Position numbers and translations under genes: made by a program. From a virus (Duplodnaviria; Caudoviricetes), in IMG/VR virus record IMGVR_UViG_3300020045_005414, positions 1 through 40,084 of that record: a stretch of DNA of 40,084 bases; one strand, given 5' to 3'. Positions 723-39,731 of the stretch are shown here, in pieces (positions within the stretch are counted from its first letter, which is position 1; each line of letters begins with the position of its first letter). Under the pieces are notes generated by a model. The model was not told the DNA's origin and made no database searches. It worked only from the letters and a program-made list of their open reading frames with translations.

Positions 723-839
723 AATATAAATTAAAAAATCCTTTTATTACTCTCAGCAGTACCAGTGCCGATTTCGTAAAAGGATGAATTTATAATTTTT
801 CTAACCGACTGGTACTCGGTGTTTGTATGCGCAAATATA
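723..839 (-). promoter_or_regulatory. leader A: promoter + 5' hairpin + terminator with complementary loops
   Basis: TATATTTG at 839-832; hairpin 804-820 with loop GUACCAG; terminator 738-785 with loop CUGGUAC followed by a U-tract. Confidence 0.8.
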
Positions 840-869
840 ATCTAAATTATTGAATTGGTGAAATTAAAT
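824..869. repeat. 46-bp direct repeat containing a promoter (second copy 39716-39761)
   Basis: tgtatgcgcaaatataatctaaattattgaattggtgaaattaaat is identical at both positions. Confidence 0.95.
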
Positions 870-1160
870 GTTATACGATTCTATAATTCTGAATAATTCA
901 TTTAGCTTATTTTGTTTTTCTTCTAAAACTTTTCTCTCTCCGTGACCCATTTCTGGATCATAAAATCGATTGCTTATTTTTTTATCAAGTTCACTAAATA
1001 TAATTTCAGTCAATCCAATGAATTTATTAAAATCCATAAGTCTAATATCTGTCACGCATTTTTCATAACCCGTAACATAATCTTTTATTGAAGATATAGG
1101 GCGTTTATTTTTTTGACAGTAATCTAATGCTTCAAGTTTAATATGTTCGTCTGCTTTCAT
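864..1160 (-). CDS. hypothetical protein (alternative cassette to 39762..39965)
   Basis: 98-aa ORF with an A-rich initiation region, between the same flanks as the 67-aa gene at the window end. Confidence 0.75.
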   Translation of the reverse strand: MKADEHIKLEALDYCQKNKRPISSIKDYVTGYEKCVTDIRLMDFNKFIGLTEIIFSELDKKISNRFYDPEMGHGERKVLEEKQNKLNELFRIIESYNI

Positions 1161-1163
1161 TTC

Positions 1164-1280
1164 TCTATTTTTTTAATGTTATTTCAAATGATGGGGTTGG
1201 TTACTGATTATGTAAAAAGAACCGTTTTGCAAAACCCTGCGAACACCAACTTCTTATACTCATATCGCATGTAATTAAAT
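1164..1280. repeat. 117-bp repeat closing the circle (copy at 39968-40084)
   Basis: Identical to the last 117 bp of the window except 1192 T vs 39996 G. Confidence 0.95.
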
Positions 1281-1821
1281 CTTTTGCATATTCCATTTCA
1301 GGTATTAATTCTTTTGCCGATTTATGAAACACTGCTAAACTTGGTTTTGTTCTTCCTGGACGAACATACAAAGGTAGTTTAGGCACATCTTCCCATTTTG
1401 AATACATAGGTTTTAGAATATTAAATTTACCCCATAAAGCTGTTTCTTTTGTCCACGGGCTACCATACTGATAAGGTTGATATTTTAATTGTGGCTTGCC
1501 TAAAAACTTATGTAAATCTCCTTTAGCAGGATTTTCAATTACGTAAAATACAGGGTCGCATTCTGTTATTATTCGAATGCAATGATTAACTAAAAATAAA
1601 CCTTTCTCATAATCCTTTTCGTTTTCGCTGCGTCCTTGGATATTTGAAAATTCAGTACAAACAGGATTTGCGATTATACTATAAATATCCATTCCTTTAG
1701 CTGAAAAATTTTCAACCCCAATATCTTTGCCAATTTTAACAACTTCATAGTTTGGGTCTAAATCGTAGTATCTGCTGTCGCTTCCAATGTCAGCGCAAAG
1801 GTGTAGTATTACTTTTTTCAT
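1201..1821 (-). CDS. phage C5-cytosine DNA methyltransferase-like protein
   Basis: NPVCTEFS (catalytic Cys motif IV), VIENP (motif VI), YGSPWTKETALWG; motif I degenerate (LCADIG); start reassigned to MKKVILHL at 1821. Confidence 0.75.
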   Translation of the reverse strand: MKKVILHLCADIGSDSRYYDLDPNYEVVKIGKDIGVENFSAKGMDIYSIIANPVCTEFSNIQGRSENEKDYEKGLFLVNHCIRIITECDPVFYVIENPAKGDLHKFLGKPQLKYQPYQYGSPWTKETALWGKFNILKPMYSKWEDVPKLPLYVRPGRTKPSLAVFHKSAKELIPEMEYAKDLITCDMSIRSWCSQGFAKRFFLHNQ

Positions 1822-1825
1822 TTCT

Positions 1826-2026
1826 CTATTTTTTACAACAAAGCACACTATACGCTTCATTGGGGGTTAGTTTATTGGATTGGTTATCGTTAAAGCCGAA
1901 TAGGGTATTATCATCAATGTATTTAAAAATGTTCCAATAAATACCATTATTGCAAACCGTTGCTACCAACTTAAAATCACGTCCACTTGGTGCAATCTGA
2001 ACTTTATTGTTTAGTTGTATTTTCAT
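1826..2026 (-). CDS. hypothetical protein
   Basis: 66-aa ORF with ATGA coupling to the upstream gene. Confidence 0.7.
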   Translation of the reverse strand: MKIQLNNKVQIAPSGRDFKLVATVCNNGIYWNIFKYIDDNTLFGFNDNQSNKLTPNEAYSVLCCKK

Positions 2027-2328
2027 TGGAATAAAGATTGAAAATCGGTTAGGGATCGGATTAAGTGGTATTCGTAGCCTAGATTCTGAACAGTTGACTG
2101 GAACCGTTTTTGATTCTCTTGTTGACTATTGTAACCAACTTTTAATTCACAAAACAAAATCCTTCCGTTCATTACAATTATCAGGTCCGAGCATCCTAAA
2201 CAAATTACTAAATCTTTTCTTTTTGATGCTAATTCATTTAGGACCGGAATAATTACTCCTTTTCCATATCGCTCAAATTGGTTCCTAAAATAAGATATGC
2301 ATTCAAGTTGTAGTGTATGTTCAGTCAT
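2023..2328 (-). CDS. VRR-NUC domain nuclease
   Basis: MTEHTLQ start; GCSDLI...FCELK...QENQKRF PD-(D/E)xK pattern. Confidence 0.85.
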   Translation of the reverse strand: MTEHTLQLECISYFRNQFERYGKGVIIPVLNELASKRKDLVICLGCSDLIIVMNGRILFCELKVGYNSQQENQKRFQSTVQNLGYEYHLIRSLTDFQSLFQ

Positions 2329-2330
2329 TT

Positions 2331-4679
2331 TTAAAATGGTATTTCGTTATCATTATCTTTTGGTTGCGTTGGGTCCTCAAAATCTATCCATCGTGTTGAA
2401 TTGGTCCGTCCTGATATATATTTCAAGTTGTAATATTTACCGTAAGATTCTAGCCATTGTGTAAACTTTCTTTGTGATAGAAACTTTTTAAAATCTTGGT
2501 ACTCATTGCAAAACTTTGTAAAATATTCTGTTTTATCAATTCTTGAATTATGCGGTAAATTTTCACGGTCCGCGCTCCATTCATAAAACTCATAAGAAGT
2601 TTCTTTGATGAATTTTCTAACTTCTAAGTTATTGAAATTGTGTTTTACTAATCCGTTCTTAAGATAGTACTGTTCACAATTAATCATAAAGTTATCAAAT
2701 CGTAACCATTCTTTTTGGTCCCAATCAGAATAAAGCATATGACCAAATTCATCTAAAGGAGTATGTTTATGTGAAAAGTAACTTGACATTTCAACTTCAA
2801 ACTTTCTTCTTTCAAATGACCCGCCAATACCTCCAACTGTATAGTTTGTAGTAATCAAAATCTTTGGTGACTTTTCTACTGGTATTGTTATTGCATCCTG
2901 TCCTTTGTACTCCAATGTAATGCCCTCAGTTATCAAAGAGAATAGGTTTTCAAAGTTGAAATTCTTTTTAACATCATCGAATACCAAAATTTGTGTATCT
3001 GTGCTTACGGTTTGATAAGGAAATGTTTTTGTTGGCTCAAACATTTTTCCATCAATTCGAGATACTTTTTTCATATTCTTTAATCCATTCCAAAAAATAC
3101 CTTTTCCGGACCCACCGTTTGGATTCTCTGAAATAGTTTCATCGTTGAATATTATTGCTTTATTGTTTGCAGAAGTTTTGAAGCTGTGAAGTAGGTACCC
3201 AATAACCGATTTTAGACTATTATACTTTTGTACATCTTTACCGGACGCAAGCCATAAATAAGTTCTAAACTCGCTTTCGTGATGATCATAAGATTCATAG
3301 TCACGGTCTATAATCTGACGTCGCCAAACATAACCATCAAGGTCCAAATAATCAATTTTTTGTATTTCATCGCTAGTGACTTTTACAACACAATTTTTGA
3401 AATACAAATAACATTCTTTTGATGTATCTTCTTTTATTTCTACTTCTGTAGTATCTAACATTGATAGAAAATCAGGTTTAAAATAACCGCTATTTGAAGC
3501 CATATAATCGTATGGACCGTAACCAATATTAGAACGGTCTAAAATGTTCTTTAAAACATAGTCCTTTATCCTTTTTTCGTTTGTTTCCTCCAGTAAGTTC
3601 TGATCCTTTTTTATAAAAGTAAAAGTATTGCTTTGCTCAGAAGGGTAGTATTTAAAAAAATTGTTTTGCTCTAACCAAAATTTGAATTTATGAGTTGAAA
3701 GAACAACTTTTCCTTTGTCATTGTAAAACCAAAATTCATCAATATCAAGTGTTTCTTTTATTCTTGAAATATCTACGTCTTTATAAACTTTTTCAATATC
3801 CTTTACCGATTTACCGGACCGGACCATTTTTTCAATCTTTTCTTTTTGTGAAGTATCTTCAAATGCTTTTCCTGCTGAAGGTCTTTTATAAGCAGAACGG
3901 ACCAGCGCTTCAATTTCTTTTTGCTTTCCTCCTTCATCAAATTTCATACACTCAGAAAGTGCATCATTGTAATCAATACCGAAGTCATTAAATGCGGAAG
4001 CTAAACGGTGTAAATTGTTATTCTTTGCCCCTTTAGTCATTCCATATTTTTTGGACCACCAAACAAGTAATTTTTCTACAATTTGGTTAGATGAAGTCAT
4101 TCTAACAATAGGCTCAAAAGTTCCTATTTCTTCTATCTCAGGTTCTTCTAGTTCAGTCCACTTTGAACTTTCCGGATTAATGTAAATATCAGGATCGTAA
4201 CTTTCAAAACAAGTTCGTGAAACATCGGATCCTGAGTCGTCCCAATTTGGATGATTGAAATACTTTTTTAGTGATTGGAAATAACCTTTGTGGTCTTTTG
4301 CATTTCCCGGTATCTTAACCAATATTTTTACACCCAATGCAGAAGGAGAAATCCAAACACTGTAAATGTACTCGTCGCTTAGAATAGAATCTTTAAACTC
4401 GATTGCATCTTCTTTAGTTTTGAATTTATCAAAATCTAATATAATTAATCCTGAGTGTTCAATTAATCCGGTTATTGATCGGCTTTTAAACTTTCCATTG
4501 AAACATACAACAGGAAGTTTTGATTTATTTTTAGAATAATCTTCGGGACCCATTAACCGTAACTGTTCAACAAAGTCTTTTGATTTACCTTCTTGTATTC
4601 TTTTTAAAGCATATGAAATGTCCTTGTTAAATGGATTGTTAACATCGGTTATTTTTTTGAATATTGATATTATTGGCAT
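2331..4679 (-). CDS. primase-helicase (BT4734/VirE-N-like prim-pol, PriCT, SF3/D5-like helicase, C-terminal winged helix)
   Basis: KSKLP...HSGLIILDFD...SPSALGVK...DVSRTCFESYDP N-domain; GAKNNNL PriCT; NGGSGKG Walker A; ILVFDD Walker B; ITTN sensor. Confidence 0.9.
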   Translation of the reverse strand: MPIISIFKKITDVNNPFNKDISYALKRIQEGKSKDFVEQLRLMGPEDYSKNKSKLPVVCFNGKFKSRSITGLIEHSGLIILDFDKFKTKEDAIEFKDSILSDEYIYSVWISPSALGVKILVKIPGNAKDHKGYFQSLKKYFNHPNWDDSGSDVSRTCFESYDPDIYINPESSKWTELEEPEIEEIGTFEPIVRMTSSNQIVEKLLVWWSKKYGMTKGAKNNNLHRLASAFNDFGIDYNDALSECMKFDEGGKQKEIEALVRSAYKRPSAGKAFEDTSQKEKIEKMVRSGKSVKDIEKVYKDVDISRIKETLDIDEFWFYNDKGKVVLSTHKFKFWLEQNNFFKYYPSEQSNTFTFIKKDQNLLEETNEKRIKDYVLKNILDRSNIGYGPYDYMASNSGYFKPDFLSMLDTTEVEIKEDTSKECYLYFKNCVVKVTSDEIQKIDYLDLDGYVWRRQIIDRDYESYDHHESEFRTYLWLASGKDVQKYNSLKSVIGYLLHSFKTSANNKAIIFNDETISENPNGGSGKGIFWNGLKNMKKVSRIDGKMFEPTKTFPYQTVSTDTQILVFDDVKKNFNFENLFSLITEGITLEYKGQDAITIPVEKSPKILITTNYTVGGIGGSFERRKFEVEMSSYFSHKHTPLDEFGHMLYSDWDQKEWLRFDNFMINCEQYYLKNGLVKHNFNNLEVRKFIKETSYEFYEWSADRENLPHNSRIDKTEYFTKFCNEYQDFKKFLSQRKFTQWLESYGKYYNLKYISGRTNSTRWIDFEDPTQPKDNDNEIPF

Positions 4680-4803
4680 AGTTAGTTAATTTGTTATAAA
4701 AGAGAAAACCTCCTAAATTGCCTTCACACAATTTAAGAGGTTTCTCGGATTAGTCTATCGACTAAAAGTCTTAATACAAGTGAAGGTTTGCATCGCAAAT
4801 ATA
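4680..4803 (-). promoter_or_regulatory. leader B (primase): promoter + 5' hairpin + terminator with complementary loops
   Basis: TATATTTG at 4803-4796; hairpin 4774-4793 with loop containing CCUUCAC; small hairpin 4751-4764; terminator 4702-4746 with apical GUGAAGG. Confidence 0.8.
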
Positions 4804-4813
4804 CAAAATGTTT

Positions 4814-5476
4814 TTAGAACTCAGCACTTAATTTAAAAAATCTTTCAGCATTTGTTCTTTTCTGAATAAATGACAAGCTGTTTTCTTTTCCGTACTTTAT
4901 GATTATAGAAGTTAGTTTTCTTTGTGATATATTGAAATTATTGTAAGACTTATAAATATCCCTGCTATTATAAAAAGTATCTTTTTCTATATTCTCTTTA
5001 AAAAACGCATAAGCGGATTTTTCTAAATCTGTTAAATTAAACAATAGTTCTTTTGAATAAATGGTTTCGTCTAAGTCTAATTTAGGAGTAAAAGTTTTAT
5101 TTATTATTTTGAAATTATCTCTACTTATTAAATCTCTAGCATCATTGTCAGTTAATTTAAACCATTCCCCAAAAACATTTTTGCTTTTAAATTCTAAGTG
5201 TAATTCTTTTTCTTTTGCTCTGTAGTCCTCAATAAAAAGATACCCAATTAGTATAATTTTTCCATTTGAATGATTTAAAGCACAAAGACGTTTTCTTAAA
5301 TCTTTGGCTATCCCTATTTTTATGTATGAAGTATGATGACTTTTTATAACATAAACATACCCTTCATTATCATTAGAATTTAATTCATTAATTTTTACTG
5401 ATAATTCTTCATAGAAAGTATCGCTAAAAATATTGAAGGTTCTTTCTCTAACAAGTAATTCAATTTTCTTTTCCAT
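4814..5476 (-). CDS. T5orf172/MUG113-type GIY-YIG protein with a primase-like C-terminal domain
   Basis: GYVYVI...YIKIG...RL..L...EKELH..F...GEWF; C-terminus SQRKLT...YGK...RTN resembles the primase C-terminus. Confidence 0.85.
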   Translation of the reverse strand: MEKKIELLVRERTFNIFSDTFYEELSVKINELNSNDNEGYVYVIKSHHTSYIKIGIAKDLRKRLCALNHSNGKIILIGYLFIEDYRAKEKELHLEFKSKNVFGEWFKLTDNDARDLISRDNFKIINKTFTPKLDLDETIYSKELLFNLTDLEKSAYAFFKENIEKDTFYNSRDIYKSYNNFNISQRKLTSIIIKYGKENSLSFIQKRTNAERFFKLSAEF

Positions 5477-5488
5477 TTTATTTTGTTT

Positions 5489-5754
5489 AGTGATTTAATG
5501 ATGTAAATGTAATACAAAAAAGTGATATATCATATAAAGTAAATCACTTTTTTAGTGTTTTAAAGTGATTTAGTTGTAAAAGTGACATATCTTTATGTTT
5601 TTACCTTTTTACTGAATAAATTTTTTTACATATTTGCAAAAAATACATATAAAGAACAATATGGTTTTTACTCGATGTGTCACTCTTTTTTGTAAGTTAA
5701 TACAAATAAAAAAACCTTAACACGTTTAGTATTAAGGTTTTAAGATAAATCACT
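5489..5754. repeat. putative replication origin with seven AGTGA(T/C)(T/A)(T/C)A iteron-like repeats
   Basis: Forward copies at 5489, 5521, 5564, 5581; inverted copies at 5540, 5676, 5746; very AT-rich non-coding gap within the replication module. Confidence 0.65.
5708..5741 (-). terminator. intrinsic terminator after the helicase
   Basis: aaaaccttaa/ttaaggtttt stem with a U-tract on the minus strand. Confidence 0.75.
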
Positions 5755-7384
5755 CAAAAATAGCTTTTAATCGACTTTCTATCTTTTCTTGAAGATATGC
5801 GTAAGTTCTAGGAACTCCATTTTTAATCATATTTACAAATCTGTAGTTATTTTTTAGATACTCTTGTATTCTTTGAACTAAATATCCGGTCCTGACTCGA
5901 GTATTATACACTTCTTTAGTGACTCGATATAACTTCCAAAGATCAACATATTTTTCTATCAAAATACGATAGTAGTCCTTTTTGTCGTTTGAGGTCCTAA
6001 CAACAAACTCAGCTATTTTTTTACCGTTTGGTAATGGTATCACTTGCAAAGCAACTGTTTTTTTATCCACTATATCTAATTCACTTTCATCTTCTCCGGT
6101 CAGGATCCTAACAGTTAACTGGACCGTATTTACATGACCACAATCAGGGCATTCATCTTTATTTGAACCAAGCCAATTATAACCGCATTTTTCACATTGC
6201 ACAAGAGTTTCTTTTTTCTTTTTAGCCTTTACAACTCCATTGTAAAAAATATCCTGCCAGTCTAACTGATCGGACCATTTGCCTAATCGTTTTACATTAC
6301 CTCCTAAATCAATTACAATAAAGTTGTCTTTAAAAATTAAGTCACTTGGTCTTGCTCCCCTTCCTATTATTTGGTGCCATAAAGACAAACTCTTTGTTGG
6401 ACGGTTTACAATGATACATTCAACTTCTTTGACGTCAAAACCAGTGGTAAACGTTCCGGTAGATACAAGTATGGCGCCATCAGTTTCCTTGAACCATTGG
6501 ACCGTTGTTTTACGTTCTGATACATCATTGTTTACAGAATCGTAAGATTGTATTTTATGTCCTGCATCCGTGAAAGTTTGGACCAATGAAGTATTTTGCT
6601 TTGTGGAAGCCGTGAAAATCATTGTCTTTTTTCCGATTGCTTTTTCTACATATTCATCTAAAACATTTTGATCGTGCTTTATACTTTCTTCAGTAATTTC
6701 GTTTTCGTCAAAATCATCATCTCCTTTTGCTTTTAATTCTGAGTAGTAATCGTAGTCAAATATAATTTCATCCACTAAAGAACCTTCATCGATTAGGACC
6801 CGAATAGGAATACCTACAATTACAGTTGAATAAGTTTCTGACATCGTTACCGGTGCGCTCCATTTTATAGCGTGGTCCTTATAACAACAAACTTCACGTG
6901 TTTTAAACCTTTTTGAACAATGTTCGCATTCGTAATATGTGATACGTTTATTTAATGAAGGAGTTGCTGTAAATCCGGTCCTAAATGCGTTATCAAATAA
7001 ATTAAAGGTTTTCACGTGGACTTGCTCGTGCGCTTCATCCACGATAAACAATCCAATATCAAGTTTTATTTTACGTGAGTGAATGGTTTGAGTCATTCCG
7101 ACAAAAACATTATTACTAAAATCAGGTTTTGATTTTGCTGTAATTTTATCGTTTAGGATCCCGAGTTTTGCAAGAGTTTCAGAAGTCTGATTTACAAGTT
7201 CGTCTCTATGGACCGAAACAAGGACTTTTTTAGTTGGGTTCCTATTAAGCCATTCTTTAATAAAAAAAGCCATAATGACTGTCTTTCCTGATCCGGTTGC
7301 CGATTGACATAAAACAGAATCATGTTCTTTCTCAGCTTCAAATATGGAATCCACCATACTTGATTGATAGTATCTTAACTGCAT
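5750..7384 (-). CDS. SF2 DEAH-box helicase (RadD/YejH-like, with Zn-finger motifs)
   Basis: LRYYQ Q-motif, SATGSGKT, VDEAH, TATP, TGFD, QIIGRGAR, CxxC pairs; start reassigned to MQLRYYQ at 7384. Confidence 0.92.
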   Translation of the reverse strand: MQLRYYQSSMVDSIFEAEKEHDSVLCQSATGSGKTVIMAFFIKEWLNRNPTKKVLVSVHRDELVNQTSETLAKLGILNDKITAKSKPDFSNNVFVGMTQTIHSRKIKLDIGLFIVDEAHEQVHVKTFNLFDNAFRTGFTATPSLNKRITYYECEHCSKRFKTREVCCYKDHAIKWSAPVTMSETYSTVIVGIPIRVLIDEGSLVDEIIFDYDYYSELKAKGDDDFDENEITEESIKHDQNVLDEYVEKAIGKKTMIFTASTKQNTSLVQTFTDAGHKIQSYDSVNNDVSERKTTVQWFKETDGAILVSTGTFTTGFDVKEVECIIVNRPTKSLSLWHQIIGRGARPSDLIFKDNFIVIDLGGNVKRLGKWSDQLDWQDIFYNGVVKAKKKKETLVQCEKCGYNWLGSNKDECPDCGHVNTVQLTVRILTGEDESELDIVDKKTVALQVIPLPNGKKIAEFVVRTSNDKKDYYRILIEKYVDLWKLYRVTKEVYNTRVRTGYLVQRIQEYLKNNYRFVNMIKNGVPRTYAYLQEKIESRLKAIFE

Positions 7385-7486
7385 AGATATAAAAACCCGA
7401 AGCGCATAAGGTCGTAGTCTTAATTGCTTCGGGAATTCAACAAGGTTTTTAATTCGGCTACGACTCCGATTTGTTACGGAAAGATA
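7385..7486 (-). promoter_or_regulatory. leader C (helicase): promoter + 5' hairpin + terminator with complementary loops
   Basis: TATCTTTC at 7486-7479 (one mismatch to consensus); hairpin 7454-7469 with loop containing GUCGUAG; terminator 7396-7433 with loop containing CUACGAC, then U5. Confidence 0.8.
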
Positions 7487-7524
7487 ATCATTTTTCTTTA
7501 ATACGCAATGGGGTTGGGTTAAAT

Positions 7525-8217
7525 CTACCATCCTTCCATTGGAAATTCTAAATACACTTGACAATTTACACGGATTTCGTTTGTTATTTTATTAACTCGT
7601 TCGGTATTTCTGCTTACTCTACCAAACCAACGCCAACCATTTGAAACAGCTTTAGTGCCTGAGTGAAACGCTTGCCAATCGAAATAATATAAATACCTAT
7701 CTTCACATTCGTGTTTTTGCAAAATATTATCTTCAATAAGCATTTCAACTTCTTTGTGCCATTCACGGTAAATTAAATCGCCTTCTTTTATTTTAGGCAT
7801 TAAACAGTTGCCTATCGCAAATTCAGTAGGACAAATTTCTGCATTTACCAATCCTAAAATATGTTCGCTTTTGTATCTTGGATTATCATAATCAGGCTGC
7901 CCGCCTGTAATAAAATGTTGTCCTGTCGGTATTTCTGCACGTGGTACATCATCGTGATGCCATCCGGGTATTGCAGGATACCATCCCGGCATTAACATAT
8001 GAACCCTGCTGTCAAAAACTAAAGGTTCGTTTTTCCAATCTTCTGGCAATGCATCTAAAAAAGAGCGTGTAATTTCACCGCCATTTTCATAAGCATATTG
8101 AAAATCACTATTAAAAAACATTGGTTCTTTTTTGATTAACGCATTTGGAATTGTAGAAGCGAAAGGATTTAATCTTTTAAAATCACTTTCGAAATATTTA
8201 TTTGTCGTTGCGCTCAT
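7525..8217 (-). CDS. putative 2OG-Fe(II) dioxygenase
   Basis: PGWHHDD (HxD), distal AFHSG histidine, WRWFGR arginine. Confidence 0.7.
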   Translation of the reverse strand: MSATTNKYFESDFKRLNPFASTIPNALIKKEPMFFNSDFQYAYENGGEITRSFLDALPEDWKNEPLVFDSRVHMLMPGWYPAIPGWHHDDVPRAEIPTGQHFITGGQPDYDNPRYKSEHILGLVNAEICPTEFAIGNCLMPKIKEGDLIYREWHKEVEMLIEDNILQKHECEDRYLYYFDWQAFHSGTKAVSNGWRWFGRVSRNTERVNKITNEIRVNCQVYLEFPMEGW

Positions 8218-8221
8218 ATCG

Positions 8222-8515
8222 CTAATTTTTGTAAGTGTTGGTTAATTGATTAAGCAGGAATAAAAAGCATCCTTTATAAATAAGCCATTTGCATTTTGAT
8301 TTCGGTAACCATCCTGCTAAATAGTTTTCCGTTTTTTTTAATTCAAAATACGCTTCTATAATGTCAATCTCGTAATCACCCTTATCTTTGTAGAATTTAA
8401 TAGTGGCTAATGACCATCTAGCACGAAAATAAAAGTAATATCCTAAAAACCATCCGTTCGCTTGTACTGGACAATTACCAGAAGGCTTGTATTCCCATTT
8501 AAATAATTTTTTCAT
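8222..8515 (-). CDS. hypothetical phage protein
   Basis: 97-aa ORF in operon; GNCPVQA...YFRARW motif. Confidence 0.7.
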   Translation of the reverse strand: MKKLFKWEYKPSGNCPVQANGWFLGYYFYFRARWSLATIKFYKDKGDYEIDIIEAYFELKKTENYLAGWLPKSKCKWLIYKGCFLFLLNQLTNTYKN

Positions 8516-8586
8516 GATTTATAATTTTTAGTCCCGTTAAATGCTAAAAATAACCGCTATTATTATTGATAGTATGAATATGATAA

Positions 8587-8754
8587 TCATTTTGAATTAA
8601 TTTTTGATGGGTACGTTTCAAACACTTCTTTTACTGGATAATGATTATCTATCATATCTTGCAATTCCTGTTGTTTAGGCTCTTTTTGAAAAGGTCTAAA
8701 ATTAAGCATATCCTTTTCTCGTAGTATTGCTTTTTGTTCGTCTGTATATTTCAT
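8587..8754 (-). CDS. small hypothetical protein (55 aa, not in ORF track)
   Basis: Hand-translated MKYTDEQKAILREKD...KINSK; ATGA overlaps at both ends. Confidence 0.6.
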   Translation of the reverse strand: MKYTDEQKAILREKDMLNFRPFQKEPKQQELQDMIDNHYPVKEVFETYPSKINSK

Positions 8755-8822
8755 TCTTCCTCTGATTTAGCATATTTAAAAATCAATCCTTGCATCGTTG
8801 CAACTCCAAACATTTCTTTTGT

Positions 8823-9062
8823 TCATTTCTCTAAAATTTCTGAAATCATTAAAATATCTCTACCTGGTATATTTGGATTTTGCCTCAGATATTCAATACC
8901 GTATCTACAAGATTGACGATAGTATTCGTACATACGTTCAATATTCTTTTTTGATGTCATTAAATTTCGTAAACCTCCCGCTTTTTCTTTAGTATACGGG
9001 CTTGTATTTTTCACCGCTTCCGTGAATTGGAAGGTGTTTAATTGGGTGTGGGTTATGCTCAT
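8823..9062 (-). CDS. hypothetical protein, possibly interrupted by a premature TGA
   Basis: 79-aa ORF; the frame stays open for 23 more codons to a TGA at 8751 that overlaps the next ATG. Confidence 0.6.
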   Translation of the reverse strand: MSITHTQLNTFQFTEAVKNTSPYTKEKAGGLRNLMTSKKNIERMYEYYRQSCRYGIEYLRQNPNIPGRDILMISEILEK

Positions 9063-9609: not shown

Positions 9610-9837
9610 CTAATTCAAATTTTCAGTTAACATTCTTAAATCTTTTGCAGTAAGTCCTACACGTGCTTTTGCAGGACGAACATTTACGCATTCAATATTA
9701 TTGATTGCTTTTCGTATTTCAATCATAACCCGATAGTATTTTAGTATTTTCGGGTTGTCTGATTGCGTGTAGTGATGTGTATTGTTTAGTGAAATTAGTT
9801 TTTCACGTCTGTTTCGGAGTTGTTGGAGTCGAGTCAT
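9610..9837 (-). CDS. hypothetical protein
   Basis: 75-aa ORF, translationally coupled. Confidence 0.7.
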   Translation of the reverse strand: MTRLQQLRNRREKLISLNNTHHYTQSDNPKILKYYRVMIEIRKAINNIECVNVRPAKARVGLTAKDLRMLTENLN

Positions 9838-10679: not shown

Positions 10680-11114
10680 TTACTCGAAATTTCTTTTAGA
10701 ATATGGTTTAGTTAAAATTATATTTAACCCATCTTCAATACTATTGTATAGTAATTGATAGTAATTTTCTTTTTGCGATAATTCCAATAAAGGACATTCT
10801 TCAATAACTTCAAATGTATGATTATCAACTCCGAATTCATCATAAGACGATTGAAGCTTATGATTTATCATTTGGCTTTTCTTATGATTATTAATGCGTC
10901 TATCTACATTTTTAGAGCCACCGATATAGCTTTTGCCAATTGGATTTGTGATTTTGTAAATTCCAGAAACACCTTTTTTATAGTATTCTTTAATTACTGC
11001 GTTTTCCGCTATTTCTTTACATACTAATAATCCAAGTTCGTCAACTATTCTTTTCTCAACTGACGCGCCTATTAATTCTCGTTTCTTTTCTTTAGCTATT
11101 GGATGCCTTCCCAT
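10680..11114 (-). CDS. GIY-YIG endonuclease with an N-terminal putative DNA-binding domain
   Basis: GIYKITNPIGKSYIG...R...H...FEVIEE...E; N-terminal MGRHP basic arm followed by a strand-helix-helix pattern. Confidence 0.85.
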   Translation of the reverse strand: MGRHPIAKEKKRELIGASVEKRIVDELGLLVCKEIAENAVIKEYYKKGVSGIYKITNPIGKSYIGGSKNVDRRINNHKKSQMINHKLQSSYDEFGVDNHTFEVIEECPLLELSQKENYYQLLYNSIEDGLNIILTKPYSKRNFE

Positions 11115-14106: not shown

Positions 14107-14159
14107 CAAGTAAATAATTTGTAACTTCGCAAAGATAAATTTTAACTATTGCATTTTTT

Positions 14160-14186
14160 ACCCTTGCAGAAATGTGAGGGTTTTTT
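14160..14186 (+). terminator. intrinsic terminator of the rightward operon
   Basis: cccttgca-gaaa-tgtgaggg followed by T6. Confidence 0.85.
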
Positions 14187-14268
14187 ATGTTAGAAATCTT
14201 GTATTACCTGTTAGAAATTTTCCTACTCCATCGTAAAAAGCTTCGAATAATCTGTTTAATGTTTTCAT
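14185..14268 (-). CDS. 27-aa amphipathic peptide (not in ORF track)
   Basis: Hand-translated MKTLNRLFEAFYDGVGKFLTGNTRFLT. Confidence 0.4.
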   Translation of the reverse strand: MKTLNRLFEAFYDGVGKFLTGNTRFLT

Positions 14269-25492: not shown

Positions 25493-25542
25493 TTTCTTTA
25501 TGTTTCATGGTTCTTGCCTACTCTTTAGATTTTCGGCTTCCT

Positions 25543-25788
25543 CTATACTTGTATTTTTTGTTCCATACTTGAAACTGCTTTTCTAACCGTATTTACTGAA
25601 CATTTAAAATTCTTTGCTACAATCTCATAACGCTTCATCTGAGCTGGCTCGTAATCAATAGATTTATAAAATAGATAAATATCATAGTCCTGCATAATTG
25701 ATAACGGCATACGTCCGATTTTAACAAACGTTTTTATTATCTTCATATTTGTGTTTATGTATTCAGCTACTCTTGCCATTTTTCGCAT
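25543..25788 (-). CDS. putative HTH DNA-binding protein
   Basis: C-terminal EIVAKNFKCSVNTVRKAV helix-turn-helix pattern; true start may be MARV at 25779. Confidence 0.6.
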   Translation of the reverse strand: MRKMARVAEYINTNMKIIKTFVKIGRMPLSIMQDYDIYLFYKSIDYEPAQMKRYEIVAKNFKCSVNTVRKAVSSMEQKIQV

Positions 25789-32239: not shown

Positions 32240-32244
32240 AATCC

Positions 32245-32751: not shown

Positions 32752-32753
32752 AG

Positions 32754-32945
32754 TTAAGCCTGTTTTACTTTAAATCCTTTATATTTACCCCTAACAAATA
32801 AATGCTTATGTTCTTCATAAATACTTTTTGATAACAAAAGAACAGTACCTTTAGGGTAATTATTAGGTAACATTTTAATATGTTCGTCAAGTATATTCAT
32901 ATCGTATAATTTAAAGCAAAGGCGGTTGCTTATTGCTTTCGTCAA
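32754..32945 (-). CDS. hypothetical protein
   Basis: Short ORF in operon; start uncertain. Confidence 0.5.
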   Translation of the reverse strand: MTKAISNRLCFKLYDMNILDEHIKMLPNNYPKGTVLLLSKSIYEEHKHLFVRGKYKGFKVKQA

Positions 32946-33003
32946 CCTCGTTCACGTTACAGGTCATTGATGCCTCTATCTGTATTGTGACTACCGCTTG
33001 CCT

Positions 33004-33528: not shown

Positions 33529-33531
33529 GAT

Positions 33532-33831
33532 TTATAAATAAGCATAAGAGCCATAAGAAGCATTTATTTTTGGAAAACCATTATTTAAATCAATATCAGA
33601 CATTTCAATTTTATAATCGTGCAATAGAAAGGGTTCGTTTTTAACATAAAAAACTCTTCTATGTTCGTCACTATAATGCTCGCACTTACAGTTTTCTTTT
33701 ATAAATGATTCTGCTTCTAAAATGTTTTTAAACTCAAAAACTTTTCTGTTTAATCCCTCAACAATTAAATCATCAAACTTATTCGATAATACTTTTGCTA
33801 TTTCCTGTATTACTAATTCTTGAATATTCAT
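33532..33831 (-). CDS. hypothetical protein
   Basis: 99-aa ORF. Confidence 0.7.
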   Translation of the reverse strand: MNIQELVIQEIAKVLSNKFDDLIVEGLNRKVFEFKNILEAESFIKENCKCEHYSDEHRRVFYVKNEPFLLHDYKIEMSDIDLNNGFPKINASYGSYAYL

Positions 33832-33848
33832 AATTTTTTATTTTTTGG

Positions 33849-35087
33849 TTAAGAGATATATCCACTTTTCTTTACTTTGGTTTTAGGTTTAAGTATTTCA
33901 CCTTCTTCAATATATCGAATCGGGTCAATTGTATGGTTCCATCCGTCAATAGGTACATTTAAAGAATTTCCTTTTTTATCTTTAGCCCAAATATATTTTC
34001 CTAGTTCTTCAATTAAATGAATGCTTCGCCTAGTCACATAAAAAACTGGGTAGCCTTGAATGTTCTGAACTCCAAAAGAAATACTATCTTTGCCCTTTTC
34101 AGCTCCTTCAATTAAAACTCCATGATTCCTAATTTCTACTATTGATTTAGGCTCTGCACTATCCGCAACAACATTACGCTTAAATGATTTTAATTCTTTT
34201 GCAATAGCAGAATTAACCAATCCTTTTTGATATAAAGCTTCATCGTAAATAGGTATTCCGTCGATTAAGTATTTATCTATAATAGTTGTAGGGTCGTTTG
34301 TATATCCAAAATCTACCCCTGTTTTAACATACTTTGCATTTTCTGGAATTGATTCAATTATTTTCCAATTACTAAATACAACGCCTTCTAAAGAACCAAC
34401 CAATCCAAGTCCGTAAACCTTCCATTTATTAGCCCAATATTTATTTTTGATATTTGAATCTTTGAATAATAATTCAAACGGCAATGCAGGGTCATGGAAT
34501 CCTTTGTTTTTGTAATCTAATATTGAACGAACCTCGCTTTGAGAAAGGTATTCATTGTCTTCAAACGTAAGTCTTAAGAAATTATTTTCATTTATATAAT
34601 CATCACCCCAAAATAATGCATCAGGGTTATAATCAATAATGGTTAATTTTGCACGGGATATAAATTGAACAGCTGTGTCTATATCCATTTTGTCAGCCTC
34701 ATTGATGTAAAGCAAATCACGCCTAAACCCCTTTCCAATATCATTTACATCTGCACCTAAAAAATCCAAATAACTCCCGTTTGAATATTCGTGCTTTGAC
34801 TCAGACTTGTTGAAATCGCTTTCGTCTTGAATAACTCCCCAATCTTTACAAATCTTTTTATAGTCACGAATAACTGTTCGCTTCATTTTAGACAATTCAG
34901 AACTCAAAACAGTTGCTTCTTTGTCTGAATTTAAAAGAGATTGAATTACAAGCTCTAGAATTGAAACTGTTTTGCTAGCTCCTTGACCACCACAAACGAC
35001 AAAAACATCTTCATCAGGGTTAGACATTATTAAGTCTAAAATTTTGAAGTATGCTTTTGTGTATTTAAATTTATTTTCGGCTTCCAA
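33849..35087 (-). CDS. terL: terminase large subunit (PBSX/Terminase_3-like)
   Basis: GGQGASKT Walker A, LYINEA Walker B, DYNP, GVDFGYTNDPT, ADSAEPKS, NHTIDPIRY. Confidence 0.95.
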   Translation of the reverse strand: MEAENKFKYTKAYFKILDLIMSNPDEDVFVVCGGQGASKTVSILELVIQSLLNSDKEATVLSSELSKMKRTVIRDYKKICKDWGVIQDESDFNKSESKHEYSNGSYLDFLGADVNDIGKGFRRDLLYINEADKMDIDTAVQFISRAKLTIIDYNPDALFWGDDYINENNFLRLTFEDNEYLSQSEVRSILDYKNKGFHDPALPFELLFKDSNIKNKYWANKWKVYGLGLVGSLEGVVFSNWKIIESIPENAKYVKTGVDFGYTNDPTTIIDKYLIDGIPIYDEALYQKGLVNSAIAKELKSFKRNVVADSAEPKSIVEIRNHGVLIEGAEKGKDSISFGVQNIQGYPVFYVTRRSIHLIEELGKYIWAKDKKGNSLNVPIDGWNHTIDPIRYIEEGEILKPKTKVKKSGYIS

Positions 35088-35508
35088 TGTCTGGAATATT
35101 AGGAATGTTTAATTGTCCCTTTACGTCGATTTCTTTTTTATCTGATAAGTCGTTAAGTCTTTGAGTAATTGACGGATTAAAAACGCTTAAAAGACCACCT
35201 GTTATCTGATTTTCTCTTATCGCGTTCTTTACACGCGAACAGATGGGTAAAAACTCTGAGTATTTATCATCAATATTTTTAAAATACTGTTCAATGCATC
35301 CAATTTCAATATCCCAACAATAACGCTTAAACCCCTCTAGAGTAAGAGGCAATTTTAATTCATCCGTTTCTCTTGTGCCTTCTTTTCCAACATACTGAAC
35401 TTTTAGCCATTCAGATTCTTTAGCTTTCAAATCAACGCAATAATCCTGAAACAATTCCCACATCATTTCAGGATTATCTATATTTCTTGGTCTGCCTTCT
35501 GTTGCCAT
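35071..35508 (-). CDS. terS: terminase small subunit (P22 gp3-like)
   Basis: GRPR....PE.MW..F..Y...PLTLEGF...NPSITQRL..L.DK; overlaps terL. Confidence 0.85.
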   Translation of the reverse strand: MATEGRPRNIDNPEMMWELFQDYCVDLKAKESEWLKVQYVGKEGTRETDELKLPLTLEGFKRYCWDIEIGCIEQYFKNIDDKYSEFLPICSRVKNAIRENQITGGLLSVFNPSITQRLNDLSDKKEIDVKGQLNIPNIPDIGSRK

Positions 35509-35673
35509 TTTATTTCCTAATTATAGATAATACTTCTACTAATTGATATTTATCAAAAGCTAATATCTCTTTAGCTCTTTTGTCATTTGTTTCGAATTCT
35601 TGATTCTTAAAACGTTTAGTGTCGGTTTTAGTATCATGGAATTTATTAATCACTTTTAACTTAACTGTTTTTT

Positions 35674-36627
35674 TCATGATTCAAGTAATTTTATCCAGTC
35701 AGATTCTTTACCTATCTCTTCAAATTCTGGAACAATTAATTCACGTTTAAGTATTGTTTCAAAATCAATGTCATTCATTTCGAACGGAACAATATAACCG
35801 TTAATTCCGTGCGTTATCTGCTCCCTGCCCGATGCAAAAGGTGTAATAATACATGGTGTTTTAACTTGCATTGCTTCATAAACTGAATAAGCGAAACCCT
35901 CCGTGTCTGATAACTGAACTAAATAATCAGCTTTGTTTATTTCTTTGAACGGTTCTCTTGTAACTCCTTTAAAAATCACATTAGGACAATTCTTAAACCA
36001 ACTAACAACTTGTTTTGCAAATGTATGTTTTGTTGACCCGTAAACATTCCAAATATACGGTATTTTTTTTAAATCTAATTGTTGTGCTAATTGCAACATT
36101 CTTTTAAAACCTTTTTCACCAGATAGTCTGGAACACGTAACCAAGTGCAAAATATTGTTTTTTATTTTTGGCTCGTGTTTAATTGTATTGTCAAGTAGAT
36201 TATAAATTACAGCATCGCATTTATACATCGTAGCTTCTTCAAATGCTTCTTTAACTATTTCGCCTACGCAAACGTGATGTGTTGTTTTTTCGTGTTTTAA
36301 ATATTTAAAATTCCAATTTGAAATAACGTGTCTATAATCTGCGTGTACAACTTGAACAACTTTATTAGCTTTTATGTTATCGTAAGGAGAATATCCCCAA
36401 GCTGTAGAATTTACAAAGTAATCGAATTGATATTGTTTTTCCTTATCTATTTTGACCACGTCTACAAAATCAGATATTTCAAATAACAATTGTGAATTTT
36501 CTACCCAATCAAAAAGGAGAGTTATTTTATAATGTTTTGACATTCGTTTACAAAAGTTTTCAACGAATCGTTCAACTCCGCCTATTGAATTATAGTTACT
36601 TATGTATATTCCAAGTGTTTTACTCAT
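35674..36627 (-). CDS. GT-B (family 4-like) glycosyltransferase
   Basis: IGGVE, VHADY, SRLSGEKG, ADYLVQLSDTEGFAYSVYEAM (Ex7E). Confidence 0.92.
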   Translation of the reverse strand: MSKTLGIYISNYNSIGGVERFVENFCKRMSKHYKITLLFDWVENSQLLFEISDFVDVVKIDKEKQYQFDYFVNSTAWGYSPYDNIKANKVVQVVHADYRHVISNWNFKYLKHEKTTHHVCVGEIVKEAFEEATMYKCDAVIYNLLDNTIKHEPKIKNNILHLVTCSRLSGEKGFKRMLQLAQQLDLKKIPYIWNVYGSTKHTFAKQVVSWFKNCPNVIFKGVTREPFKEINKADYLVQLSDTEGFAYSVYEAMQVKTPCIITPFASGREQITHGINGYIVPFEMNDIDFETILKRELIVPEFEEIGKESDWIKLLES

Positions 36628-36631
36628 ACCC

Positions 36632-36667
36632 CAAAATTACAAAAAATCCCCAAATTAATGAGGATTT
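36632..36667 (-). promoter_or_regulatory. terminator immediately followed by the glycosyltransferase promoter
   Basis: Hairpin aaatcctca/tggggattt plus U-tract, then TAATTTTG (36639-36632) 4 nt before the ATG. Confidence 0.65.
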
Positions 36668-36693
36668 ATGAATAAAATTAATTAAACGTACCA

Positions 36694-36969
36694 TTAAGGC
36701 TTTGCAATCTCAAGTTTTACTATAAGATTATTTGCTTTTATGCTATCTCTTTTAATTGCTTCTTTTGTTACGTCCTTTGGTTCAATCGACCAAGACTCAA
36801 CAATATTACCTTTATACCAAACATAAGTTTTGTGCTCTCCTGAAAAATAAGATTGCTCAATCGAATAGTTTGATTTAGTGTATTCGATACCGTTCTCAAC
36901 AGATACTCTATGTATCTCCGTGCATGACAACAAAACAACTGATATCGATAGTAATAATAATTTTTTCAT
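36694..36969 (-). CDS. lipoprotein
   Basis: MKKLLLLSISVVLLS|C lipobox. Confidence 0.85.
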   Translation of the reverse strand: MKKLLLLSISVVLLSCTEIHRVSVENGIEYTKSNYSIEQSYFSGEHKTYVWYKGNIVESWSIEPKDVTKEAIKRDSIKANNLIVKLEIAKP

Positions 36970-36981
36970 AATAATTTGATT

Positions 36982-37275
36982 TTAATGTTTAATATTGTTT
37001 TCGTCTAATAATCGATCTTGAATTTCAAGTAGTTCTTTTTTCTTAGCTAGAATATCCAAAGCATTATTAAGCTTGCTATTTGTGTTAATCCACTCCCTAT
37101 TAGCTTTACTAACTTCTTTTTGAAGTTTTAAGTTTTTCTCTATCAAATCCGTATTTTCTAATTGCAAATCTTTGTTTCTATCCGATTGCAACGAATACAA
37201 ATGACAAGTTATAAGCCATCCGATAAAGAATAAGGCTGCGATTATTAGTATAAATATTGTTTCTGCTTGGTTCAT
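36982..37275 (-). CDS. N-terminal TM + coiled-coil protein
   Basis: TM at about residues 7-24, then heptad repeats. Confidence 0.75.
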   Translation of the reverse strand: MNQAETIFILIIAALFFIGWLITCHLYSLQSDRNKDLQLENTDLIEKNLKLQKEVSKANREWINTNSKLNNALDILAKKKELLEIQDRLLDENNIKH

Positions 37276-37484
37276 AAGTTGTTTTTTGCGTTAGTAATTT
37301 CTAATTGGAGTAAATCTACTTCTTTTTGCCTTTCGTCTATCCTGTGGCTTATTTTAGGCTTTATTTGGTTAGTAATGGCTACTATCTCCTCGTAAGACCA
37401 TTTCGATATAAACAAATCTAATACAATTGATTCAGCCTTTTCTTCTATAAGCTCGGCACGGCTTTTTGTTTTGAATGGGTTCAT
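37272..37484 (-). CDS. hypothetical protein
   Basis: 70 aa, coupled. Confidence 0.7.
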   Translation of the reverse strand: MNPFKTKSRAELIEEKAESIVLDLFISKWSYEEIVAITNQIKPKISHRIDERQKEVDLLQLEITNAKNNL

Positions 37485-37963
37485 ATGATTTTTATTTTTT
37501 TTTCTGCTAATCTTTCGAAGTTCTTAAACAATGGAGCTGTTTTGTATAATTCAATTTCGTTTGCATTGTCCCAAACAGAGAGTAAATCATTGAGGCTTAA
37601 AATCGGTTCGTTGTAGTCAACTTTAAAAACGTCAGGAAACCACGCTCTTAAATTATCCACTATTAACGAATTGTTTTCGTGCCTTGCGTTGTGAGCTACT
37701 TGCAGTATTTGCTCTTTCGTTATTTTCATATCGTTGTTTTTGTATGTTAGTATTTTTGCGTAGCCATAATTTTTATCCCATAATAAAACATTTTGTCCTG
37801 TATAATGTTTATTATATAAATCAATCCAATATTCATGTGCCCATTCGTGAATATCTTTTATTATAGAAATTGTAATATCTACTATATCAGATTCATTTGG
37901 CGATTGCACTTCCTTTGCATCCTTAAAATACTCCTGTACTTCTTCTAAACTTGGTCTTTTCAT
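37481..37963 (-). CDS. hypothetical protein
   Basis: 160 aa; PSLEEVQEYF N-terminal motif. Confidence 0.75.
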   Translation of the reverse strand: MKRPSLEEVQEYFKDAKEVQSPNESDIVDITISIIKDIHEWAHEYWIDLYNKHYTGQNVLLWDKNYGYAKILTYKNNDMKITKEQILQVAHNARHENNSLIVDNLRAWFPDVFKVDYNEPILSLNDLLSVWDNANEIELYKTAPLFKNFERLAEKKIKII

Positions 37964-38139
37964 GGTTGTAAATTTCTATAATTAATCCAAAAATCTCTTA
38001 AAACATCGGAAATGTTATCCCACTTCATATCAGGTATTTTTGACATGATATATTTTTTCTGTTCTTCTGTATAAACTTTCATATCTTGAATTTATAATTT
38101 TGGTCATACAACAATTTCGATATGTAATCGTAGAATTTG

Positions 38140-38295
38140 TTAAATAGGTTTTTCATCTTGTTTTTTGTTTAGATATTGTTCTGATTGTTCTTTTGCGTAC
38201 TTACGGACGTCTTTGATTACTTTTGGATGACAACGAACTGTGTAAGGCTCGTTGGTTTTCTTTTTTCTCCCTGCATTTCTTTCGTTGTTTTTCAT
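38140..38295 (-). CDS. 51-aa ribbon-helix-helix-like DNA-binding protein (not in ORF track)
   Basis: Hand-translated MKNNERNAGRKKK...YTVRCHPKVIKDVRKYAKE...; NAGRK arm, then strand and helix. Confidence 0.65.
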   Translation of the reverse strand: MKNNERNAGRKKKTNEPYTVRCHPKVIKDVRKYAKEQSEQYLNKKQDEKPI

Positions 38296-38558
38296 ATTTT
38301 AGTGTTTAAATAATATTGTAAAATTCTATCTTTTAATGCTTTTATTGTTTCATTGCAAAAAACTTTATGATTTACCATTGATACAGAATCTCTTTCTGAA
38401 ACACACCATTCACCGTAATCGTGTGAATAAGATTCTCTTTGCTCTACTGTAAAAGGTATTACGGTTTTAAAATTATATCGCTTCAATACTTTTTTACCCT
38501 GTTTTATAGTCGCTATTTTTTTAGCAGGAGCAATAGCAACAGATATAATCTTTTCCAT
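38292..38558 (-). CDS. hypothetical protein
   Basis: 88-aa ORF. Confidence 0.7.
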   Translation of the reverse strand: MEKIISVAIAPAKKIATIKQGKKVLKRYNFKTVIPFTVEQRESYSHDYGEWCVSERDSVSMVNHKVFCNETIKALKDRILQYYLNTKI

Positions 38559-38559
38559 G

Positions 38560-38784
38560 TTAATTTATAGAGTTTAAAATATTGTTTATAAATAACACCA
38601 TTGAATCGGTTAGTTTTTCGTGATTTGGATAATTAAAAGGCAATTTAATTACTTCCATAAACCGAAGTCCACGAATTGTTTGGTAACTTTCGTAAACAAC
38701 ATTGTTTTCAGTCCAAAAATGGTCGTGGTTATTTGATTTTACTATCATCTTTTTAAACTTTTTGAAGACTGTCGGTTTTGGCAC
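38560..38784 (-). CDS. hypothetical protein
   Basis: 74-aa ORF, GTG start. Confidence 0.6.
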   Translation of the reverse strand: MPKPTVFKKFKKMIVKSNNHDHFWTENNVVYESYQTIRGLRFMEVIKLPFNYPNHEKLTDSMVLFINNILNSIN

Positions 38785-39029
38785 GACTTAAATATATTAA
38801 CGGGTCTGTTTCTGGAGCATCTACATATTGAAAGCAATAATACCCATCAATCATAAACCCGCAATACTCTATTTGTTCACCATTGTAAAAATATCTTTCC
38901 ATAATTATTTTTTGTAGATGAATTTTGCTATTTGAAATCCTGTAAATCCACTAACTATTGATAAAATCAGTAAGTTAATAATAGTATTGTATTCGCTCAT
39001 ATTTTTAAACTTAAAAGGTTATCTGAGTA

Positions 39030-39037
39030 CAAATATA
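39030..39037 (-). promoter_or_regulatory. Bacteroidota -7 promoter element for the small-gene operon
   Basis: TATATTTG in an intergenic gap ~30 nt upstream of an ATG. Confidence 0.7.
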
Positions 39038-39282
39038 ACATTGTTTTTTAAATAACAAAGCTTTATTTTAAATTTTAACACTTTTTTACCCCACGCCCCA
39101 CTCATAACAATCCAACCTCCTTTTAAACTCTTCTAAGCGCTTATTATTTTCTCTTGATACTAACAGACTTATAAATACTTTCTATCCAATGAAACGTTAC
39201 TTTTTTTATTTGGTGACGTGCTTTTAACTCGGCTTTATGTTGCTTTGACAAATCACGCCACCATTTTAATTCAATCATAACG

Positions 39283-39606
39283 TTAACGAATATCGTATAA
39301 TCTTAAAAAACGATCATTAACCAATAGATTGAATTCAGAAAATACAGGCTTATTAAAACTATGTTTTGTTTTAACGGTTAAATAATCTTTTTTCGTAACC
39401 GCTCCAGGTCTTCTTTCTGAAACTTCAAATATTTCATAAACAGAAATCATTTCGGGAGTATAATTCCCAACGATAACATCGCCAACTTTTACGTCTTGTT
39501 TTGAATCAACATAAAATGTTATTTCATTGTTTACATTTCTTTTTGCAGGATTTTCTTCCCACGTCATTAAATCACAAGAAAACTGGTTTAATAATAAATT
39601 TTTCAT
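39283..39606 (-). CDS. hypothetical protein
   Basis: 107 aa from MKNLLL; the ORF-track start at 39642 lies inside the terminator stem. Confidence 0.75.
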   Translation of the reverse strand: MKNLLLNQFSCDLMTWEENPAKRNVNNEITFYVDSKQDVKVGDVIVGNYTPEMISVYEIFEVSERRPGAVTKKDYLTVKTKHSFNKPVFSEFNLLVNDRFLRLYDIR

Positions 39607-39731
39607 AATGCTTTGTTTTATTAAATAAAAAATGCCTTTCAAAATCTACAAGGGTCTGATGCTTGCTTCATTCAAAAGGCTAATCGTTTAAGTTCTCTTA
39701 GTTTCAGACCAGAACTGTATGCGCAAATATA
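39607..39731 (-). promoter_or_regulatory. leader D: promoter + 5' hairpin + terminator with complementary loops
   Basis: TATATTTG at 39731-39724; hairpin 39700-39716 with loop containing GGUCUGA; terminator 39634-39680 with loop containing UCAGACC, then a U-tract. Confidence 0.8.

Follow-up and report, generated by a model that had tools for sequence, protein, structure and literature searches.

Leaders with variable loop-loop codes precede replication and nuclease genes in flavobacteria-type phages and may act as self-contained transcription attenuators

Results

The stretch of DNA analysed here, called the window throughout, is the 40,084-bp virus record IMGVR_UViG_3300020045_005414, classed as linear and 99% complete, which codes for a terminase, portal, protease, tape measure protein, endolysin, helicase, primase and methyltransferases (MTases), and whose primase is partially matched by sequences of cultured Flavobacteriia phages. 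Boxes of the form TAnnTTTG, which we take to be the Bacteroidota-type -7 promoter consensus, lie 5' of window genes, and four minus-strand leaders with a -7 box, designated A to D, are the subject of this study. Each carries a 5' hairpin whose loop sequence (X) is complementary to the apex (X') of a terminator-like hairpin. Judged by compensatory changes in homologues, this loop pairing is under selection, and the leaders, going by the searches described below, are an uncatalogued structured RNA that is widespread in uncultured relatives. Their features, together with a terminal repeat that bears on A and D, are as follows.

832..839, minus strand: leader A, -7 promoter box TATATTTG, within the 46-bp block 824-869
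804..820, minus strand: leader A, 5' hairpin of 5 bp, X = GUACCAG (815-809)
733..785, minus strand: leader A, terminator-like hairpin (785-738) with apex X' = CUGGUAC (765-759), an internal loop and a U-run
486..722, minus strand: gene behind A, DNA methyltransferase fragment of 78 aa whose frame ends early
4796..4803, minus strand: leader B, -7 promoter box
4774..4793, minus strand: leader B, 5' hairpin, X = CCUUCAC (4786-4780)
4750..4765, minus strand: leader B, middle linker hairpin of 6 bp, with one compensatory pair among homologues
4698..4746, minus strand: leader B, terminator hairpin with apex X' = GUGAAGG (4727-4721) and a U-run
2331..4679, minus strand: gene behind B, 782-aa primase/helicase-like protein with a BT4734-like/VirE N-terminal domain
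7479..7486, minus strand: leader C, variant -7 box TATCTTTC
7454..7469, minus strand: leader C, 5' hairpin of 4 bp, X = GUCGUAG (7464-7458)
7391..7433, minus strand: leader C, terminator hairpin with apex X' = CUACGAC (7417-7411), a 3x3 internal loop and a U-run
5750..7384, minus strand: gene behind C, 544-aa SF2 (ResIII/DEAD) helicase
39724..39731, minus strand: leader D, -7 promoter box, in the 46-bp block common to A
39691..39716, minus strand: leader D, 5' hairpin of 6 bp, 14-nt loop with X = GGUCUGA (39710-39704)
39627..39680, minus strand: leader D, terminator hairpin with apex X' = UCAGACC (39659-39653), a purine-rich 4x4 internal loop and a U-run
39283..39606, minus strand: gene behind D, 107-aa protein without a PHROG or Pfam match and with no relative found
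39968..40084, no strand assigned: 117-bp repeat of 1164-1280, which suggests that one site has two alternative paths, the A cassette and the D cassette

A sequence-only reading of the window had proposed that the four leaders share a single architecture, with exactly complementary loops and a loop code of its own in each leader, and our analysis bears this out. All eight 7-mers lie where listed, all four X/X' pairs (4/4) are exact reverse complements, and the gaps between them (43 nt in A, 52 in B, 40 in C and 44 in D) agree with the spacing of 40-52 nt given at the time. On folding, X falls in every leader into the loop of a small 5' hairpin just 3' of the -7 box, and X' forms the tip of a long hairpin, after which come a U-run and, 11-27 nt further on, the ATG. 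A blind scan for promoter and terminator units on both strands of the window returned 27 units, five of which have a loop match of at least 7 nt, namely A, B, C, D and a plus-strand match at 10762 that lies inside a coding region and adjoins its own stem. The chance of a match per leader, estimated from shuffled 5' zones, was 0.058 for A, 0.004 for B, 0.019 for C and 0.012 for D. In addition, the four window codes are orthogonal to one another, own pairs having energies of -9 to -12 kcal/mol and cross pairs being weaker than -3, and the pairing in A extends over 9 nt.

Other parts of the sequence-only reading had to be amended. The leaders were said to share no sequence, which does not hold for A and D, as their promoters lie in an identical 46-bp block (824-869 = 39716-39761); a -7 promoter was assigned to each, which is right overall with a variant box in C; and the MTase frame behind A is present, though not as a whole gene. 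The features general to attenuators, that is a promoter, an untranslated leader and a hairpin with a U-run 5' of the first gene, are all present as a sequence pattern. A generic terminator scan of positions 1-9000 listed the terminator of B and did not list those of A and C, which contain internal loops. Plain terminators without a loop partner lie at 5711-5741 (minus strand, after the helicase) and at 14150-14190 (between convergent operons).

Homologous leaders were collected from relatives of the primase and helicase and through five pattern scans. One scaffold, S1, found 5' of near-identical primases, is represented by 50 distinct copies, of which 48/50 are perfectly paired over 8 nt with 12 perfect codes; the exceptions are L157, in which one position is mismatched, and a coding-DNA sequence that matches by chance and was left out of the alignment (49 rows). 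Three of the eight kissing positions were fixed by the search patterns and five were free. Over the 49 rows the kissing helix is 99.7% paired without any G-U pair, as compared with 92% for the lower terminator stem, and all five free pairs (5/8) change on both sides. Watson-Crick cells amount to 244/245 at the free kissing positions and 499/581 in the terminator, and shuffles reached the covariation of S1 in 0/500 cases on all five measures, with slid partners also falling short. Homologues with the scaffold of B are paired in 11/11 cases, with three codes and compensatory changes, those of C have one pair changed on both sides, and those of D keep the same code with other genes downstream. 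Covariation in homologues, to which the sequence-only reading had looked, is thus found in S1, B and C, where pairing is kept through compensatory changes. An A-like leader (G036; L462, minus strand near 9827) has nearly the same two loops as A in swapped order, and at L011:5238 the loops are swapped relative to S1. A model built solely from S1 scored D at 31.5 bits (E 0.0013); with E values of up to 5 allowed, it recovered none of the leaders A, B and C.

Across 49 records, 47/123 non-redundant units of promoter, terminator and open reading frame (ORF) match their own loop over at least 7 nt, a proportion that is not a prevalence, as many genomes were picked because they carry such leaders; loop swaps, used as the control, match in 0.7% of 14,890. 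The 56 distinct leaders comprise 29 codes with a mean GC content of 57%, and their X-X' spacing is 36-55 nt (median 46). The kissing helix is limited to 7-9 bp in 54/56 leaders, G-U pairs being allowed, which argues for a loop-loop kiss and not for a strand-exchange antiterminator. X is enclosed by a 5' stem of at least 4 bp in 50/56 leaders, the sense strand folds better than the opposite strand in 48/56, and a downstream 7-nt match to the terminator loop is absent in 55/56. No loop nucleotides are common across scaffolds. A U-turn (YUNR) motif, found in X of 14/29 codes and in X' of one, was dominated by one scaffold and set aside, and a correlation between linker and stem proved to be an artefact of the boundary rule and was discarded. 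Purine-rich internal loops, placed between apex and base, recur in the terminators of D, S1, L010, L060, L027 and L051 and are of two types, UGAA/GGAU and AGUA/GAA, the latter of which presumably resembles an E-loop; the scaffold of B lacks them and has its linker hairpin instead.

The leaders stand before early genes. Among 51 distinct downstream ORFs, 41 were scanned against Pfam and comprise 3 helicases, 5 primases, 9 HNH proteins, 2 DUF6291, 2 YopX, 1 DUF7833, 1 weak match and 18 without a match; none of the 41 matched a structural or lysis family, and no guanidine transport or efflux gene was among them. On comparison of related operons, the leaders move as cassettes. In seven records with primases that are 88-100% identical, the primase operon uses five codes and three scaffolds, two of these leaders preceding an inserted small gene, and the helicase is preceded by a B-type leader in close relatives but by scaffold C in the window. 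At many of the more distant primase loci, the region directly upstream lacks such a leader.

The last 117 bp of the window (39968-40084) copy 1164-1280, including the 3' end of the MTase gene, and together with the 46-bp promoter blocks of A and D these duplications suggest an assembly bubble. Probably, A and D each form a cassette with their gene, the two cassettes being alternatives at one genomic site whose two paths were joined in the assembly, so that a single genome may carry three leaders rather than four. Contigs from two sequencing runs link 868/870 to 1164 without the intervening gene of the window, and the slot is therefore variable among relatives. Further contigs of relatives span across window positions 1202-1832, 4803-5578, 7515-8210 and 868-1164 and skip the MTase, a T5orf172/GIY-YIG protein, and 230-aa and 98-aa proteins; by these joins, the genes in the four intervals are exchangeable cassettes between short conserved blocks. 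Four DNA runs, which contain relatives only, leave 1-277 uncovered and 278-554 nearly uncovered, which proves nothing. Positions 1-490, beyond the truncated MTase, have a higher GC content and hold a short inverted repeat, and may be foreign.

With regard to known families, the Rfam comparison for which the sequence-only reading left room gave no match in Rfam 15 at the window leaders, at 12 primase loci or at 20 small leader loci. The published Pedo-repair RNA was rejected as a candidate, as its alignment rows in the supplement part of PMC2864571 show a different fold context and Rfam gives no match. PMC10690425 lists unnamed candidates 5' of VirE_N, ResIII and NUMOD4-HNH genes (e.g. DNAVirus_4940), which may include pieces of the leader family. 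No published description of the element was found in the full-text literature, a search outside which most subscription papers lie. A homologue search with the 107-aa protein behind D gave no relative; the architecture occurs in 2/104 loci retrieved with the pattern of D and in 0/120 retrieved with that of A. In cellular genomes, the S1 model matched in 1/151 (24 candidates scored per genome) and the S1 pattern in 5/401 and 4/401, against 7 and 6 for the reversed control, the architecture being present in 0/9 of these pattern loci; S1 is thus not above the control level in about 800 sampled cellular genomes. Cultured phages gave no blastn match for S1 or B, and four Flavobacteriia isolates contained no convincing leader.

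A sister leader was observed 5' of primases that are 49-61% identical to that of the window (L014:1430-1560, L022, L018, L019, L048, L056, L058). It has a -7 box, a small hairpin and a terminator whose loop is complementary to a site past the U-run, just before the ATG, and often a second partial copy of this site. There are 20 distinct copies with several codes, 17 having 9-nt and three having 7-nt matches (swaps reach at least 7 nt in 18/300), and Rfam gave no match in the five sister-leader loci scanned. The position of the site suggests translation-level or trans action for the sister leader. In the S1 leaders of L205, L208 and L210, the X code is repeated directly before the ATG, in a layout X...X'...X like that of seqA/CI/seqC. 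Two other RNAs were seen, a DUF805b RNA of Rfam at 25515-25546 of the window (minus strand; 46.1 bits, above the gathering score), 5' of the head maturation protease gene, and a Pistol ribozyme at L066:10412-10477 (plus strand; 55.9 bits).

Discussion

By comparison with known RNAs, the leader architecture is a reuse of a known terminator geometry in which the variable codes are the new part. The closest precedent, which the sequence-only reading did not name, is the guanidine-IV RNA (GGAM-1/mepA), which likewise has a 5' hairpin, a linker and an intrinsic terminator whose loop kisses the 5' loop. In the parts of the guanidine-IV literature used here, the kiss hinders complete terminator formation, and a terminator that grows takes up linker and makes the kiss less favourable (PMC11611296, PMC7736828); the proposed cause of read-through is a steric block of the outer terminator pairs by the kiss. 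However, according to the same parts, the loops of guanidine-IV hold highly conserved guanidine-binding nucleotides and precede transporter genes, whereas the leaders described here have 29 codes among 56 and precede phage replication and nuclease genes, without an Rfam match.

Given this likeness, together with the complementarity, the compensatory changes, the strict Watson-Crick pairing confined to loops, the fixed spacing and the place between a -7 box and an early gene, each leader is likely to be a self-contained transcription attenuator. Transcription of the units, with its start site, termination and read-through, is predicted. As the RNA is made, the 5' hairpin loop would pair with the matching apex of the terminator while the latter is still forming and keep it from zipping up completely, letting the polymerase proceed into the replication or nuclease operon. 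It is likely that the kiss in cis regulates termination, and that it favours read-through is suggested by the guanidine-IV precedent. By a hand estimate, linkers of 16-20 nt would be stretched to roughly 60-100% of their full length to span the stems and the kiss, which fits a strain between the kiss and terminator growth.

Since there are no conserved ligand-type loop bases across scaffolds, something else must vary the outcome, and the most economical candidate is the leader's own terminated RNA, predicted to be a molecule of about 85-100 nt that begins and ends in a hairpin. On a new transcript, a terminated RNA with the same code would occupy X, the first loop, through its own free X' loop before the X' of that transcript appears, and termination would thereby be restored. 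The operon would be on in a newly infected cell and be turned down by the build-up of its own short RNA, each code acting independently of the others. No third copy of the code at a conserved place was found in 11 genomes, and an opposite-strand -7 box, the only promoter type looked for, was present in 4/56 leaders and 4/61 controls, so that the trans partner would be the leader itself. We hold this combination, a kiss in cis for read-through and closing in trans by the cognate terminated leader, as a tentative reading with somewhat less than an even chance of being correct; its trans step is suggested less strongly than the direction of read-through.

Known systems offer parallels for such logic. 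The sequence-only reading cited P4 CI, P1 C4 and IncI. In P1/P7 C4, IncI repZ/Inc RNA and pT181, RNA recognition is initiated by loops and a short loop sets the immunity or incompatibility group, and each uses a separate or antisense regulator RNA, unlike the leaders here, for which none was found. As with P4 CI and P1 C4, leaders B and C precede a phage primase and helicase, yet C4-type Rfam models gave no match at the leaders scanned, and the two-sided target layout of CI and C4 is not that of the leaders, a downstream 7-nt match being present in only 1/56 and an X repeat before the ATG in three S1 copies. CI is processed and pairs with seqA upstream and seqC downstream, whereas the leaders here have one upstream site whose partner is the terminator loop. 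In the portion of PMC4825925 used here, CI, a short RNA made from the replication operon's leader, controls premature termination of that operon via short complementary sites, and IsrK of the Gifsy-1 prophage has a promoter, a short terminated RNA and partial read-through, its short form acting in trans on its own long mRNA; both thus exemplify phage leaders that are able to act on their own transcripts. IsrK differs in that translation is activated by long pairing with the downstream orf45, and that portion describes no loop-loop code family for it. The cATT leader of pLS20, a mobile-element operon leader in the part of PMC13401043 considered here, also has an upstream stem-loop complementary to the terminator, and read-through is its default in vitro; there, however, stem strands exchange to form a long helix in a 456-nt leader, as opposed to pairing that ends at the loop edges (7-9 bp in 54/56) in leaders of about 90 nt. 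As such, the leaders resemble a ligand-free guanidine-IV geometry with a possible CI/IsrK logic.

The comparative evidence on the trans step, and on the copy sensing or incompatibility that the sequence-only reading derived from it, is mixed. In favour of the step are the orthogonal codes of the window, the five codes at the primase operon of seven near-identical records, and cross-matches between codes in 0/46 comparisons within genomes as against 176/2816 between genomes; in the last of these, only about three within-genome matches were to be expected, the pairs are non-independent and the contrast is inflated by the choice of genomes. Several points weigh against it. Changes per column, counted on leave-one-out trees, are 8.6 for free kissing positions and 7.0 each for the linker and the terminator 5' arm (p about 0.23), so that diversifying selection on the code is not shown; it is notable that the kissing pairs, which change on both sides and hardly ever show a mismatched intermediate, do so at the pace of unpaired positions, but pairs in the terminator stems flip often too. 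One S1 code occurs in 12/50 copies, 5' of unrelated genes, and the helicase code CCACUAC is kept in 6/6 close relatives while the stems change. The terminated RNA bears both loops and may be neutralised by kissing itself or a twin, and capture of the nascent loop within about 45 nt of transcription would need high RNA levels. In addition, no integrase was found in the window and, as the sequence-only reading had it, no repressor among the 63 ORFs scanned, and a lysogeny or immunity setting is thus not established.

A first alternative is an attenuator that would work in cis only, in which competition between kiss and terminator zipping would set read-through kinetically, or a factor or cell state would tip it (a phage or host factor, polymerase speed, Mg2+ or a protein that reads the shape), while the code would be neutral and drift by compensatory change. 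It would accommodate codes that change no faster than linker or stem positions and a single S1 code that serves many genes, guanidine-IV acts purely in cis in the sources as used here, and the recurrent purine-rich internal loops of the terminators are a possible factor site. However, it leaves unexplained the codes that do not coincide within genomes, a weak point given the 0/46, and the exchange of whole leaders between near-identical primase operons, and no loop nucleotides common across scaffolds are available for a ligand. We regard it as possible, on the unlikely side.

Alternatively, the kiss might stabilise the terminated state, and a cognate short RNA or a protein would break it to turn the operon on. 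The activation by short IsrK of its own read-through mRNA, in the portion of PMC4825925 used here, sets an example, many downstream genes are nucleases that would need a tight off state (9/41 HNH), and the terminators are already the predicted minimum-energy fold. Yet a terminator that folds by itself requires no extra stabiliser, and guanidine-IV, the sole characterised RNA of the same geometry, uses its kiss for read-through in the source parts considered, which makes such a default-off switch rather improbable. An equally small chance is given to a post-transcriptional role, in which the pairing, acting in cis or in trans, would compact the 5' end of the read-through mRNA and control how stable this mRNA is or how its translation starts, the terminator setting only a fixed leak. 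The short distance from hairpin to ATG (11-27 nt in the window) and the X repeats before the ATG in L205, L208 and L210 would suit it, as would the sister architecture (20 copies, 7-9 nt), whose pairing site lies beyond the U-run and hence cannot affect termination in cis; the kissing leaders, by contrast, lack a downstream 7-nt match in 55/56 cases, and their X lies about 45 nt 5' of X' and is made in time to act during transcription. Finally, chance or a DNA-level inverted repeat without RNA function, for which the mismatched S1 copy L157 and the ability of template switching to perfect short inverted repeats might speak, is highly improbable and largely refuted by compensatory changes at the five free pairs, with 47/123 own-loop matches against 0.7% in swaps and with strand-specific folding and U-runs pointing the same way.

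Conclusion

Taken as a family, the leaders are a selected structured RNA, missing from Rfam, that many uncultured phages of the Bacteroidota type carry in front of their replication and nuclease operons. They carry freely variable codes on a geometry that, in the sources as used here, is known from a ligand-binding riboswitch, and these codes allow a direct comparison of cognate and non-cognate leaders. If the trans step of the attenuator proposed above holds, RNA alone would time or limit replication and exclude relatives in such phages, and the family would offer dozens of natural orthogonal RNA transcription switches of less than 100 nt. It is conceivable, at roughly one chance in three, that the promoter-leader units of flavobacteria-type phages form a library of interchangeable cassettes, every one of them a one-piece self-sensing RNA that would open in cis and close in trans; such cassettes would be protein-free, operon-specific timers or copy counters and would provide code-based exclusion between co-infecting relatives.

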